From the IMG/VR virus record IMGVR_UViG_3300025751_003710: DNA of 64,000 nt; one strand, given 5' to 3'. The translations under genes were made by a program, and so were the position numbers. Shown one piece after another: positions 4,801 to 8,605 of the stretch. How positions within the stretch are numbered: position 1 is the first letter of the stretch; each line of letters starts with the position of its first letter. The DNA comes from an uncultured virus (IMG/VR IMGVR_UViG_3300025751_003710) (Duplodnaviria; Heunggongvirae; Uroviricota; Caudoviricetes). A model generated the notes under the pieces. That model searched no databases. It was not told the origin of the DNA and was given only the letters and a program-made list of their open reading frames with translations.

Positions 4801-5034
4801 TTGTTTAAAATTTTTACTAGAAAAAATTGTAAGTATTGCTATAAAGTTAAACAAGTGATAGAATTAACAGGTAACTCTTATGAGGAACTTACTCTGGGAA
4901 AAGATTTTACCAGGGATGATTTTATTTCTAAATTTGGAAGTGAATCAACTTTTCCTCAAGTAATTTATGAAGATGAATACTTGGGTGGATGTACAGATAC
5001 AATTAAATTTTTAAAAGAAAAACAATTTGTCTAA
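4801..5034 (+). CDS. Glutaredoxin
   Basis: CKYC active site, TFPQV and GGCTD motifs; TTG start preceded by AGGAGG. Confidence 0.9.
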   Translation: MFKIFTRKNCKYCYKVKQVIELTGNSYEELTLGKDFTRDDFISKFGSESTFPQVIYEDEYLGGCTDTIKFLKEKQFV

Positions 5035-6019: not shown

Positions 6020-6375
6020 ATGAGACTTATGATGAAGTAAAATCTAAGGAAACTGGAGGATCATCTGTGGAATGGAGTAACGAAGAAAAAGAAAATTCCA
6101 CAGCTAGATATGGTTGTAGTATTTTGGTTGAGAAAGCAACTTTAGAACAAGTTAAAGATCCATCTTGGCCAAATGATGCCAGATTAATTTGGTATATCGT
6201 TGATGGTATTGAGTATATGGATCTTACTAGATGTAGTAAAATATCTAAGTTGTTTGATATGTATTATGATAAGTATGGTAAAGGATCAATACAGAAAATT
6301 GATTTTGGTTATGGTACAGTGAATCCAAAACTCTGGGGGTATAAAGCACCCACCGAAAAGAAAAAGCGAAAGTGA
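6016..6375 (+). CDS. Conserved cyanophage hypothetical protein
   Basis: ATGA overlap with the upstream stop; FDMYYDKYG..GYGTVNPKLWG motif. Confidence 0.65.
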   Translation: MNETYDEVKSKETGGSSVEWSNEEKENSTARYGCSILVEKATLEQVKDPSWPNDARLIWYIVDGIEYMDLTRCSKISKLFDMYYDKYGKGSIQKIDFGYGTVNPKLWGYKAPTEKKKRK

Positions 6376-6435
6376 TTTCCCAATAACCCCGAAAAAAATT
6401 CGCCAAAATTTTTAACCTGTAAGGTTTTTTAAAAT

Positions 6436-6451
6436 TGTATCATAAGTTACA
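6436..6451 (+). promoter_or_regulatory. NtcA-type binding site (TGTA-N8-TACA)
   Basis: TGTATCATAAGTTACA, an exact match to the cyanobacterial NtcA palindrome, just upstream of a -35 box. Confidence 0.65.
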
Positions 6452-6458
6452 TAACTAC

Positions 6459-6487
6459 TTGACTACATAGTACATAGGAGTTATAAT
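6459..6487 (+). promoter_or_regulatory. Sigma70-type promoter
   Basis: TTGACT (6459) - 17 nt - TATAAT (6482); predicted start near 6494, just before aptamer 1. Confidence 0.8.
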
Positions 6488-6496
6488 ACTCTAGTA

Positions 6497-6729
6497 CGTT
6501 CATCCAATGTTAGCACTACTGCTGGCATTCACCCTTGCCCATCATAATGACGCTAATCCTTACGATTGGCACATGTCTTGTGAAAGGTGGTTACAACGAT
6601 CTACGGAAATCCGATTAGATCCAAACCTTGACCTTCGGTCGAAGTTGAGTCTAATCGCTTACCTCAAATCAAAAGTACCAGGTGAATGTAACGGAGTGTA
6701 TACATAGGACGCAAGTAAGTCGCGGAACG
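6497..6729 (+). ncRNA. Glutamine riboswitch-like aptamer 1 (glnA/Downstream-peptide family) with an ORF-sized P2 loop
   Basis: CGTTCATCC (6497)...GGACGCAAGTAAGTCGCGGAACG (6707-6729); P1 CGTTC/GAACG, P2 TCC/GGA. Confidence 0.6.
6507..6707 (+). CDS. Small signal-peptide-bearing two-Cys protein nested in aptamer 1
   Basis: 66 aa, hydrophobic N-terminus MLALLLAFTLA, C...VPGEC. Confidence 0.65.
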   Translation: MLALLLAFTLAHHNDANPYDWHMSCERWLQRSTEIRLDPNLDLRSKLSLIAYLKSKVPGECNGVYT

Positions 6730-6732
6730 GAG

Positions 6733-6920
6733 CGTTCATCCCATGCTAGAATTACTTTTATATTCAAGTATAACTTGTACTGATGCTGATGCATTATTGT
6801 TCAGGATCACAAAAAATAGATCAGAACTACCTCCACAAGTGGTGGTAGAATTGGTAGAGACCGTAAAGGAATCTGTACCTGAATGTGAATTCTACTGGGA
6901 CGCAAACGACTGAAGGAACG
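6733..6920 (+). ncRNA. Glutamine riboswitch-like aptamer 2 with an ORF-sized P2 loop
   Basis: CGTTCATCCC (6733)...GGGACGCAAACGACTGAAGGAACG (6897-6920); P2 extended by TAGAATT (6747) pairing with AATTCTA (6888). Confidence 0.6.
6743..6913 (+). CDS. Small two-Cys protein nested in aptamer 2 (56 aa, not in the ORF track)
   Basis: Manual translation: MLELLLYSSITCTDADALLFRITKNRSELPPQVVVELVETVKESVPECEFYWDAND*. Confidence 0.6.
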   Translation: MLELLLYSSITCTDADALLFRITKNRSELPPQVVVELVETVKESVPECEFYWDAND

Positions 6921-6985
6921 GGAAAAAACGGATCCAGCGAAAGCTGAGAAGGTTAATTTTCACCCATTCTTTTAGGAGACCTACA

Positions 6986-7150
6986 ATGAACACCCTCAAT
7001 CTCATTAAAAAGCAAATTAAAAAAGCAGCAGCACTGCACGACGCTCAAATCGCAATGACCACTTATCGTGGTGTCAAGTATGAGTGTAAGCAAGGTGCTG
7101 ATGAAGTACATGGTACTTTCTGCTATCGCGGTCACACTTATAATAAGTGA
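6986..7150 (+). CDS. DUF4278-like YRG peptide (54 aa, not in the ORF track)
   Basis: MNTLNLIKKQIKKAAALHDAQIAMTTYRGVKYECKQGADEVHGTFCYRGHTYNK*; two YRGxxY motifs; AGGAG SD. Confidence 0.75.
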   Translation: MNTLNLIKKQIKKAAALHDAQIAMTTYRGVKYECKQGADEVHGTFCYRGHTYNK

Positions 7151-7157
7151 GGCAATT

Positions 7158-7256
7158 ATGCAAGCATTATAAGTAGTATCATTAGGTTCTATTTTTAGTA
7201 TTGCATTTCTTGGTTTAGTTTACGGAAAGTTAACACTTTTACATAAGAGAGGTTAA
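7158..7256 (+). pseudogene. Small membrane peptide gene with an in-frame TAA at codon 5
   Basis: MQAL*VVSLGSIFSIAFLGLVYGKLTLLHKRG*; GAGG SD; the hydrophobic frame continues after the stop. Confidence 0.4.
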
Positions 7257-7273
7257 GAAACCTCTCTTTTTTT
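7245..7273 (+). terminator. Rho-independent terminator
   Basis: AGAGAGGTT-loop-AACCTCTCT followed by a T run. Confidence 0.8.
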
Positions 7274-7298
7274 GTACTTACATTAAAAAGTTACAATA

Positions 7299-7312
7299 GT
7301 ATATTAAGATAC
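7299..7312 (+). promoter_or_regulatory. Second NtcA-type site (GTA-N8-TAC)
   Basis: GTATATTAAGATAC, with TAGAAT (-10-like) at 7333, upstream of ORF 7414. Confidence 0.45.
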
Positions 7313-7413
7313 CAAAACATTACTACATAGAATAGAATTAAGGTTCTGCTTATGTTCTGAAATTTTTTCTTTATTATGATTTTCTAAATTAATGTTAAAA
7401 TTGCGTTGGAGGT

Positions 7414-7807: not shown

Positions 7808-7970
7808 TACGACAAGAGCTAAACGTCTTGTAAAATTGCTTGAAAGACTTATCAAGCAAGATCATCTTTATGATGAAGAAAGGATTGTAGAAATGAAAAA
7901 AGAACTTTCCAATCTTAAAGAACAAATTTCCGAAATTGAAAAACAAAATTACAAAGGATTTGGTAAATGA
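7800..7970 (+). CDS. Small coiled-coil hypothetical protein
   Basis: In frame with track ORF 7779-7970; LVKLLERLIKQDHLY...KGFGK. Confidence 0.65.
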   Translation: MTDTTRAKRLVKLLERLIKQDHLYDEERIVEMKKELSNLKEQISEIEKQNYKGFGK

Positions 7971-8605
7971 CCGTAAAACTGATTAGTGTAACTCCAGATG
8001 CAGAAGAAACTATGGCATATGTTGCCAGAGTTTCTAATCCTGCAAATCAAGAAAACGAAAAATATGCAGGACTTTTGAAATATTGTATTAAACATAATCA
8101 CTGGAGTGTATTTGAGCAAAGTTTCATGACTCTGGAGATTGAAACTACCAGGGCAATCGCAGCTCAAATTTTGCGTCACCGTTCGTTCACATATCAAGAG
8201 TTTTCCCAGCGGTACGCTGATTCATCTCTGTTAGGTTTTGATAAGATTCCACTACCAGAACTTCGTAGGCAAGACACGAAGAATCGCCAAAATTCTATTG
8301 ATGATTTGGATCCTTTTGATGTTCAGACTCTGCAACTTCAGATGCAAACTCTCTTTGATTCTTCCATGGCTTTGTACAAGCAAATGCTTGAACGTGGTGT
8401 CGCAAAGGAATGTGCAAGAAATGTGCTTCCACTCTGCGTACCAACAAAAATCTACATGTCAGGATCATGCAGGTCATGGATCCATTATATAACTCTGAGG
8501 TCTGCAAACGGCACTCAGAAAGAGCACATGGATGTAGCAAATGGATGTAAGAAGATTTTTATTGAACAGTTTCCAACAGTTGCTGAAGCACTTGAATGGG
8601 TATAA
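7967..8605 (+). CDS. thyX: FAD-dependent thymidylate synthase
   Basis: HWSVFEQ, RHRSFTYQEFSQRY (RHRx7S motif), KECARNVLP. Confidence 0.95.
   Translation: MTVKLISVTPDAEETMAYVARVSNPANQENEKYAGLLKYCIKHNHWSVFEQSFMTLEIETTRAIAAQILRHRSFTYQEFSQRYADSSLLGFDKIPLPELRRQDTKNRQNSIDDLDPFDVQTLQLQMQTLFDSSMALYKQMLERGVAKECARNVLPLCVPTKIYMSGSCRSWIHYITLRSANGTQKEHMDVANGCKKIFIEQFPTVAEALEWV

Follow-up and report, generated by a model that had tools for sequence, protein, structure and literature searches.

Can a ligand-sensing RNA fold and a complete protein-coding gene occupy the same nucleotides? This question is raised by positions 6497-6920 of a 64,000-nucleotide stretch (hereafter, the window) of the uncultured virus record IMGVR_UViG_3300025751_003710, in which two copies of a riboswitch-like sequence, each interrupted by an open reading frame (ORF1 and ORF2), stand in tandem in front of a third frame (ORF3). 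The virus is a T4-like cyanomyovirus, an ocean cyanophage. A sequence-only reading of the locus had proposed that the two halves of each copy pair across the whole ORF, which would place a gene inside the hairpin loop of an aptamer. Positions 6497-6920 were found to comprise two predicted glutamine-aptamer units of the glnA / Glutamine-II kind; the observation was confirmed and the feature is widely conserved. The riboswitch class itself is known. Glutamine riboswitches are described by the Rfam families RF01739 (glnA) and RF01704 (Downstream-peptide) and occur, for example, in the leaders of Synechocystis gifB/IF17 and of picocyanobacterial DUF4278 genes (PMC6212724, PMC6698751, PMC2864571). 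What is new is that a gene for a small helical-hairpin protein of the Cys...Cys type lies within the variable hairpin of both units.

Two aptamer units with genes inside their hairpins

The repeat pattern given by the sequence-only reading was recovered from the window. The 5' half, CGTTCATCC, occurs at 6497-6505 and again at 6733-6741 (two matches against 0.08 expected from shuffled sequences), and the 3' half, GGACGCAA-N-GGAACG, occurs at 6707-6729 and at 6898-6920 (two matches against 0.00 expected). Both ATG codons begin 1 nucleotide (nt) past CGTTCATCC and have no AGGAG-like Shine-Dalgarno (SD) sequence upstream; the AUG of ORF1 would lie about 13 nt from the 5' end of the RNA. The stop codons run into the 3' halves in the manner described: the UAG of ORF1 (6705-6707) overlaps the GGA at 6707-6709 by its G, and the frame of ORF2 crosses the 3' core as TGG GAC GCA AAC GAC TGA. 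The two proposed stems are present as well. In unit 1, 6503-6510 (UCCAAUGU) and 6702-6709 (ACAUAGGA) form seven pairs with one A-A mismatch, and in unit 2 the segment 6739-6743 is complementary to 6896-6900 and the segment 6747-6753 to 6888-6894. That the aptamer halves pair across whole ORFs, the central claim of the earlier reading, is supported by relatives with empty hairpins, by compact forms that match Rfam, by covariation and by predicted folding. Additional to that reading are the IF17-like ORF3 with its predicted anti-SD helix, the candidate helix between the units, the NtcA-type box and the constant pairing of only the A in the ORF2 start codon.

Relatives with empty hairpins at the same site

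Relatives were collected as viral contigs carrying an exact copy of a 21-mer of the unit 1 core, which gave at least 120 loci. The set that was analysed (124 sequences) consisted of 120 viral-contig loci, three GenBank phage isolates and the window. Relatives with empty loops were sought and were found at exactly the same site in both units. Of 122 parsed copies of unit 1, 89 had a short empty hairpin (12-47 nt, for example UCCCC-UA-GGGGA) and 33 a long insert of about 200 nt; for unit 2, 119 copies were parsed, with a short empty hairpin of 12-27 nt in 7 and a long insert of 140-203 nt in 112. Long inserts in both units at once, as in the window, were present in 32 sequences among the matches listed. 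The stem that would close the ORF-sized loops here closes loops of 12-47 nt in relatives, in keeping with the variable hairpin that follows CGUUCA.

The long inserts bear ORFs in all but a few copies. These loop genes have 49-75 codons across the relatives. They fall into several diverged ORF families that are housed in the same loop, and their position relative to the RNA is kept. Among insert-bearing copies, the ATG stands 4 nt past CGTTCA in 104 of 112 copies of unit 2 and in 25 of 33 copies of unit 1. The ORF of unit 2 stops at the UGA or UAA inside ACU[G/A]AAGG in 105 of 112 copies, in families that share only 21-40% identity, and for unit 1, 22 of 33 copies have the stop codon in the 3' stem strand and a further 4 have it at the UAA of GCAAGUAAG.

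An alignment-based search of cellular genomes found no relatives. The exact 21-mer core was present in only six contigs of mixed metagenome-assembled genomes (MAGs) and assemblies, and was read as phage DNA. The assemblies concerned (L129-L134) are labelled Verrucomicrobiales, Euryarchaeota, Nonlabens and Synechococcus MAG, and most likely contain cyanophage contigs that were binned into, or contaminate, cellular genomes.

Covariation and folding across the ORFs

Covariation was sought and the closing pairs were found to covary across the ORFs. In the 36 ORF-bearing sequences of unit 1, 85.7% of the cells of helices P1 and P2 were standard-paired, against 28.6-55.1% when the 3' partner was slid, and the covariation score was 0.145 against 0.096 in shuffles, none of 500 shuffles reaching the observed value. 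One hairpin pair of this unit was C-G in 16 sequences, U-A in 14, U-G in 2 and another combination in 4. The A, U and G of the start codon were paired in 36, 29 and 34 of the 36 sequences, respectively. In unit 2 (83 sequences), 85.9% of cells were paired; pairing of the first five hairpin positions is kept in 82-83 of the sequences, with a change from U-A to C-G in four. In each unit, the 5' and 3' ends of an insert were more complementary to each other than to swapped ends (0 of 5000 permutations reached the observed value). Replacement of the whole stem was seen in other ORF families, for example GAUUAUGG/CCAUAAUC in locus L059. Both strands of P1 are present and complementary in both units and P1 is invariant (36 of 36 sequences for unit 1, 83 of 83 for unit 2); even in S-TIM5, S-CAM1, S-CAM3 and Sf-FP1 the cores show no variation.

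Folding of 6494-6990 with ViennaRNA gave a minimum free energy (MFE) structure of -150.4 kcal/mol that contains P1 and P2 of unit 1 and P2 of unit 2. In the window, pair probabilities were 0.70-1.0 for the P2 helices and 0.51 for P1 of unit 1. The interiors of the natural ORFs favour closure of the stems. For unit 1, closure was 0.89 with natural interiors against 0.56 with dinucleotide-shuffled ones, the natural value being higher in 30 of 30 cases, and for unit 2 it was 0.83 against 0.47, higher in 43 of 45; the folded sequences are interrelated and these counts are not independent trials.

ORF1 and ORF2 are conserved genes

As judged from their codons, ORF1 and ORF2 (66 and 56 codons) are real conserved genes under purifying selection. 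Third codon positions were the most variable in both families: the entropy at the first, second and third position was 0.60, 0.44 and 1.13 in the ORF1 family (26 sequences) and 0.94, 0.45 and 1.26 in the ORF2 family (81 sequences). The median ratio of nonsynonymous to synonymous polymorphism (pN/pS) was 0.31 for ORF1 and 0.45 for ORF2, and all or almost all pairs gave a value under 1. The length of the unit 2 insert is a multiple of three in 103 of 112 copies, and both ORFs match PHROG families (phrog_6471 for ORF1 and phrog_504 for ORF2). The last five codons of ORF2, which spell WDAND, are near-invariant at all three positions, with a third-position entropy of 0, as predicted by the overlap of these codons with the RNA core.

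Profile comparison with hhalign identified the ORF1 and ORF2 families as homologous (probability 94.7%, E=5.7e-8, aligned from Cys to Cys over 40 columns). The loop ORFs all begin with a hydrophobic N-terminus and contain two cysteines at a spacing of 33-38 residues, and AlphaFold2 predicted helical hairpins with a predicted local distance difference test (pLDDT) score of 81.0 for ORF1 and 81.7 for ORF2. A Pfam search with ORF1 and ORF2 gave no match, Foldseek against the PDB gave no match with E below 5 for the loop proteins, and an Atlas search returned unnamed clusters only.

Ligand pocket, Rfam matches and the link between the units

The pocket of the solved Glutamine-II riboswitch structure is formed by C1, G2, G18, C19, C39, G40 and G41 in the numbering of PMC6698751, and both units keep all of these nucleotides, in CGUUC, in the CGCA strand and in GGAACGG. 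Each unit thus has a complete predicted ligand pocket of the glnA / Glutamine-II kind, made of the CGUUC:GAACG helix, CGCA and the G that follows GGAACG. The halves of the type-I E-loop are distributed over the two units. Unit 1 has AAGUA and no GAAG, unit 2 has GAAG and no AAGUA, and both halves together with helix P3 (AGUCG/CGACU) are present only when the two units are combined. The AGUCG/CGACU helix, a candidate for P3 of a nested type-I aptamer or for P2 in a type-II reading of unit 1, is near-invariant, with only three variant sequences, all of them wobble-compatible. It flanks GGAACGG in unit 1, and its loop holds most of unit 2; GGAACGG in unit 2 is flanked by the covarying CUGAAG/CUUCAG, which overlaps the G before GAACG.

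It had been anticipated that insert-bearing aptamers would be missed by standard covariance searches, and the window indeed has no Rfam match even at E<=10. A search of Syn9, S-SCSM2R and Syn19 with RF01739 gave only one sub-threshold match (16.3 bits), located elsewhere in the genome. Twenty of the related loci, including all seven with two short hairpins, were scanned with RF01739 (gathering score 35 bits) and RF01704 (33 bits). RF01739 was above its gathering score in five of them (L014 and L019, 43.6 bits; L056, 42.9; L040, 40.3; L032, 38.4). The passing alignments span both units: unit 1 supplies CGUUCA, the hairpin and ACGCAAGUA, unit 2 supplies GAAGGAACG, and AGU...ACU serves as P3. Taken singly, units of the 20 loci reached 23-31 bits with RF01739 and 18.6-34.0 bits with RF01704; the highest value belongs to the compact unit 2 of L032, which is above the gathering score, all other single units giving 18.6-28.8 bits. 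Compact RNAs resembling unit 1 and unit 2 stand as separate rows in the published glnA alignment (PMC2864571, supplement 5), and the strings CAUCCCAUG and GGAACGGAGCGUUCA are absent from that alignment file.

The two units may adopt a side-by-side arrangement or form a single canonical type-I aptamer that carries the second core in its P3 loop. For compact loci the Rfam model favours the nested arrangement; by sequence the two are indistinguishable, because all four P1 strands are identical. The leader would probably act as a double glutamine riboswitch, glutamine being the presumed ligand.

Expression platform and ORF3

Within the 3' half of unit 2, a strand that is complementary to the flank of the ORF3 SD sequence (anti-SD strand, Table 1) was found. 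The anti-SD segment CU[G/A]AAG covaries with UU[C/U]AGGAG: in 99 distinct sequences, the variable pair was G-C in 51, G-U in 26, A-U in 22 and A-C in none. The same helix between the anti-SD strand and the SD flank was predicted by RNAalifold on 20 sequences. The GAAG tail also holds the stop codon of ORF2, and the G/A change retains a stop (UGA to UAA). A structured insert at 6927-6954 is optional: 20 distinct sequences, the window among them, carry it. Compensatory changes affect each of its 7 pairs, and it has no Rfam match.

ORF3 contains two YRG motifs and weakly resembles DUF4278 (E=3.3e-4), in line with an IF17-like identity. All 112 distinct downstream sequences listed have an SD-like AGG motif and an ATG, and the genes that follow open with sequences of the MNTLN.., MTTITYRG.. 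or MAQVTYRG.. type (codons read by eye). Host glutamine riboswitches control IF17 / DUF4278 genes as ON switches (PMC6212724, PMC6698751).

Transcription unit and genomic context

The region from 6494 to about 7275 is predicted to be one early cyanomyovirus transcription unit with an NtcA-type box, a sigma-70-type promoter and a terminator. Between the end of the promoter and CGTTCA there are 9 nt in the window, and a strict promoter with a -10 hexamer ending 7-9 nt (in one locus 12 nt) before CGTTCA was found in 87 of 118 related loci. Because the -10 hexamer sits just before CGTTCA, the aptamer would be placed at the 5' end of the RNA, and the putative transcript start, near 6494, would precede it by 3 nt. 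Of 118 related loci, 69 have the motif GTA-N8-TAC no more than 70 nt before CGTTCA, in most cases beginning 52-61 nt from it. The box at 6437-6450 would presumably be bound by NtcA, given its agreement with the consensus. Its centre is about 50 nt 5' of the putative transcript start; classical NtcA-activated promoters have their box at -41.5, and the box in the window is placed differently.

A blastn search with 6380-7000 matched, at least in part, 371 of 50,697 phage records, nearly all from Synechococcus or Prochlorococcus phages, and in eight records at least 80% of the query was covered. The counterparts of ORF1, ORF2 and ORF3 in Syn9 are gp196, gp197 and gp198, and their order is kept in Syn19 and S-SCSM2R. 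Metatranscriptome contigs that hold the stretch were found in four runs from four studies, as assemblies that give no starts, strand or level. Exact contigs of run X1 span 6408-7249 and are the sole cover within 6250-7350, which is a weak hint on the extent of the unit. In this run, the conserved cores appear as branch points that join contigs of co-occurring phage variants (6408-7249).

The junction GGAACG-GAG-CGUUCA (6724-6738) seems to accept insertions, as extra inter-unit sequence is present in L075 and L113. Annotations under the blastn match in two phage records, Sf-CH5 and Sf-FS3, name a homing endonuclease or an HNH endonuclease. Among the neighbouring genes, the ORF at 4801-5034 has a glutaredoxin-type look with a CKYC motif, and the ORF at 7967-8605 has the look of a ThyX-type thymidylate synthase with an RHRS motif (both by eye from the translations).

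Table 1. Positions and properties of the features of the locus in the window (aa, amino acids).
Feature	Position	Strand	Description
NtcA-type box GTA-N8-TAC (GTATCATAAGTTAC)	6437..6450	+	exact match; 5' of the -35 hexamer
Predicted sigma-70-type promoter TTGACT-17-TATAAT	6459..6487	+	11/12 consensus matches
Unit 1, 5' half	6497..6510	+	P1 strand CGUUC 6497-6501; A6502; hairpin 5' strand UCCAAUGU 6503-6510
ORF1 start codon	6507-6509	+	within the hairpin 5' strand of unit 1
ORF1, 66 aa	6507..6707	+	hydrophobic N-terminus, then Cys25...Cys61 helical hairpin; phrog_6471; Syn9 gp196
Unit 1, 3' half	6702..6729	+	hairpin strand ACAUAGGA 6702-6709, including stop UAG; ligand strand CGCAAGUA 6710-6717; AGUCG 6718-6722; GGAACG 6724-6729
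AGUCG	6718..6722	+	complements CGACU 6907-6911; candidate shared helix
Unit 2, 5' half	6733..6753	+	CGUUC 6733-6737; A6738; UCCCA 6739-6743; UAGAAUU 6747-6753
ORF2 start codon	6743-6745	+	first base in the hairpin 5' strand of unit 2
ORF2, 56 aa	6743..6913	+	ORF1 homologue; phrog_504; Syn9 gp197; end WDAND + UGA is aptamer core
Unit 2, 3' half	6888..6920	+	AAUUCUA 6888-6894; UGGGA 6896-6900; CGCAAA 6901-6906; CGACU 6907-6911; GAAG 6912-6915; GAACG 6916-6920
Anti-SD strand CUGAAGGAA	6910..6918	+	pairs with UUCUUUUAG 6967-6975, overlapping AG of the SD sequence; in the MFE fold
Optional structured leader insert	6927..6954	+	AAC/GUU helix; GGAUC/AGAAG internal loop; hairpin CAGC-GAAA-GCUG 6935-6946
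SD sequence AGGAG	6974-6978	+	in front of ORF3
ORF3, 54 aa	6986-7150	+	IF17-like YRG-repeat protein; phrog_545; Syn9 gp198
Intrinsic-terminator-like hairpin and T-run	7245..7276	+	hairpin 7245-7268; ends the unit

Proposed mechanism and alternative explanations

We consider it likely that this leader combines two loop genes with a double glutamine riboswitch controlling ORF3, so that translation and sensing would compete on one RNA. Because the AUG is part of the stem's 5' strand, the folded aptamer would bury the start codons of ORF1 and ORF2. This geometry suggests that the AUG would become hidden when ligand binds, or that the aptamer would be opened by translation. When no glutamine-bound aptamer is formed, the GAAG tail would mask the SD sequence of ORF3; bound glutamine would hold the GAAG-GAACG tail in the aptamer and free this SD sequence, which would make the element an ON switch by analogy to the host gifB/IF17 leaders. 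A translating or terminating ribosome would unzip the aptamer and uncover the SD sequence of ORF3, and a ribosome terminating on ORF2 would open the anti-SD helix. The loop genes would then be expressed chiefly at low glutamine, from RNA that is nascent or has not folded, and ORF3 would be expressed from the folded, glutamine-bound RNA or through coupling to the termination of ORF2. A stronger form of this proposal, which is possible and is put forward tentatively, would be a bistable mRNA whose ligand-sensing domain shares its nucleotides with two genes. RNAs reached by a ribosome while nascent would stay open and yield the loop proteins, and RNAs that have folded would act as glutamine sensors and switch on the IF17-like gene.

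Several observations weigh against the double riboswitch with competing translation. If termination of ORF2 opens the SD sequence of ORF3, ORF3 could be made at low glutamine, which would blur reciprocal control. In unit 2 only the A of the start codon is constantly paired (A in 82, U in 29 and G in 30 of 83 sequences). P1 and the inter-unit helix never vary, so that covariation speaks neither for nor against them. In the window, ViennaRNA did not predict P1 of unit 2 (probability 0.0) or the AGUCG/CGACU helix (0.002), and constraining both units to fold carries a penalty of 9.0 kcal/mol (nested) or 11.5 kcal/mol (tandem); the probability of unit 2 P1 was 0.44 with natural interiors against 0.54 with shuffled ones, natural being higher in 8 of 45. 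The window has no Rfam match at the gathering threshold, and neither RF01739 nor RF01704 matches anywhere in the whole 110,789-base virus record. The similarity of ORF3 to Pfam DUF4278 (PF14105; E=3.3e-4, 21.4 bits, residues 26-53) is below the cut-off of 25.3 bits. The relatives were collected by an exact 21-mer, with at least 120 loci, and their frequencies are biased and the sequences not independent. The RNA data are assembled contigs only, and the absence of cover outside 6408-7249 is not a finding.

The loop genes might be passengers, with the riboswitch acting on ORF3 only, the hairpins serving as permissive insertion sites near a strong early promoter, no reciprocal control, and the stem-closing ends kept only to spare the aptamer. 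This would agree with the optional nature of the inserts, the hairpin being empty in 89 of 122 copies of unit 1 and 7 of 119 of unit 2, with the several diverged ORF families that share one loop and with the other insertions nearby (homing-endonuclease or HNH genes in Sf-CH5 and Sf-FS3, extra sequence in L075 and L113). We nevertheless regard it as unlikely: the AUG has a fixed position in the stem (offset of 4 nt in 104 of 112 unit 2 copies), the ORFs have no SD sequence, the stop lies within the anti-SD strand in 105 of 112 copies despite identities of only 21-40% between families, the ORF interiors favour stem closure over shuffled interiors, and a ribosome on the ORF and a closed stem are physically exclusive.

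It is very improbable that the aptamers are relics whose halves stay unpaired across the ORFs in vivo, ORF1 and ORF2 being ordinary operon genes and GGAACG-GAG-CGUUC forming a local hairpin that might be used in RNA processing or stabilisation or be a target of recombination or homing. The local hairpin does reach a probability of about 0.40 in the predicted ensemble, P1 shows no covariation, mobile genes have inserted at the inter-unit junction and the window has no Rfam match; against relics stand the compensatory changes across about 200 nt and the invariance of every pocket base in ORF-bearing copies while synonymous sites of the same ORFs vary freely, an invariance that extends to the distant phage S-TIM5. 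The local hairpin is, moreover, also part of the nested model and is not exclusive to relics. More improbable still is a diverged aptamer class that senses another ligand, or a pair of protein-binding sites. Single units do score below both Rfam cut-offs in nearly all loci scanned, and GAAG is missing from unit 1 and AAGUA from unit 2. However, all pocket nucleotides of PMC6698751 are retained, compact forms like unit 1 and unit 2 are part of the published glnA alignment (PMC2864571, supplement 5), and the downstream gene belongs to the class that is controlled by known glutamine riboswitches. The double glutamine riboswitch with two loop genes is the explanation that we prefer.

Comparison with known systems and significance

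Functional RNAs with a coding frame in one of their loops are known: group I introns carry homing-endonuclease ORFs in peripheral loops, and transfer-messenger RNA (tmRNA) is a further case. These are ribozymes or translation-rescue RNAs and not ligand sensors, and the start of the ORF lies outside the function-critical helix. With the glutamine riboswitches of the papers cited above, the phage element shares the core of CGUUCA, hairpin, CGCA/CGGA-AAGUA and GAAG-GGAACGG as well as the IF17-like downstream gene, and its anti-SD logic is consistent with the published ON switch. It differs in that the hairpins hold whole genes that start in the stem and stop in the stem or the core, in that neither unit alone has both E-loop halves and the window scores nothing in Rfam, and in its location in a phage, at the predicted extreme 5' end of an early transcript.

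Tandem glutamine aptamers (PMC9481103) likewise have two cores in one leader before one gene. They are published as side-by-side, pseudo-cooperative aptamers, and the word "nested" does not occur in that paper. In contrast to them, the phage units can share a helix, the Rfam model aligns across both, and each unit carries a gene. A frame whose translation decides the fold of the RNA is also found where riboswitches interact with upstream ORFs (uORFs) and in leader-peptide attenuators, for example in the B12 riboswitches of Mycobacterium tuberculosis (PMC11260477). The frames described there, in the part of the source available, encode short regulatory peptides in the expression platform, whereas the phage frames encode conserved structured proteins in the ligand-binding domain. 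Full-text searches of the literature, which did not cover Ames and Breaker 2011, gave no description of genes inside an aptamer hairpin, and there is none in the available portions of PMC2864571, PMC9481103, PMC6212724, PMC6698751, PMC5473149, PMC9004378 and PMC9964418.

Riboswitch aptamers are usually viewed as compact non-coding domains in front of the gene that they regulate. Here, genes share bases with the ligand-binding fold, and translation and ligand sensing would be directly linked on one RNA. According to PMC5473149, only two glutamine aptamers are found in cyanophage genomes and phages rarely use riboswitches. Surveys would under-count phage riboswitches, as 371 of 50,697 phage records match the locus in part and at least 120 viral-contig loci carry it, yet Rfam is silent. 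The cassette of an NtcA-type box, a putative glutamine sensor and an IF17-like gene resembles a phage copy of the host nitrogen circuit and points to sensing of nitrogen status during infection. If the bistable mRNA proposed above is real, one aptamer pair would give opposite glutamine-dependent control of the genes inside it and the gene behind it, phage riboswitches would be far commoner than covariance scans report, and hundreds of cyanophages could read the nitrogen status of their host.

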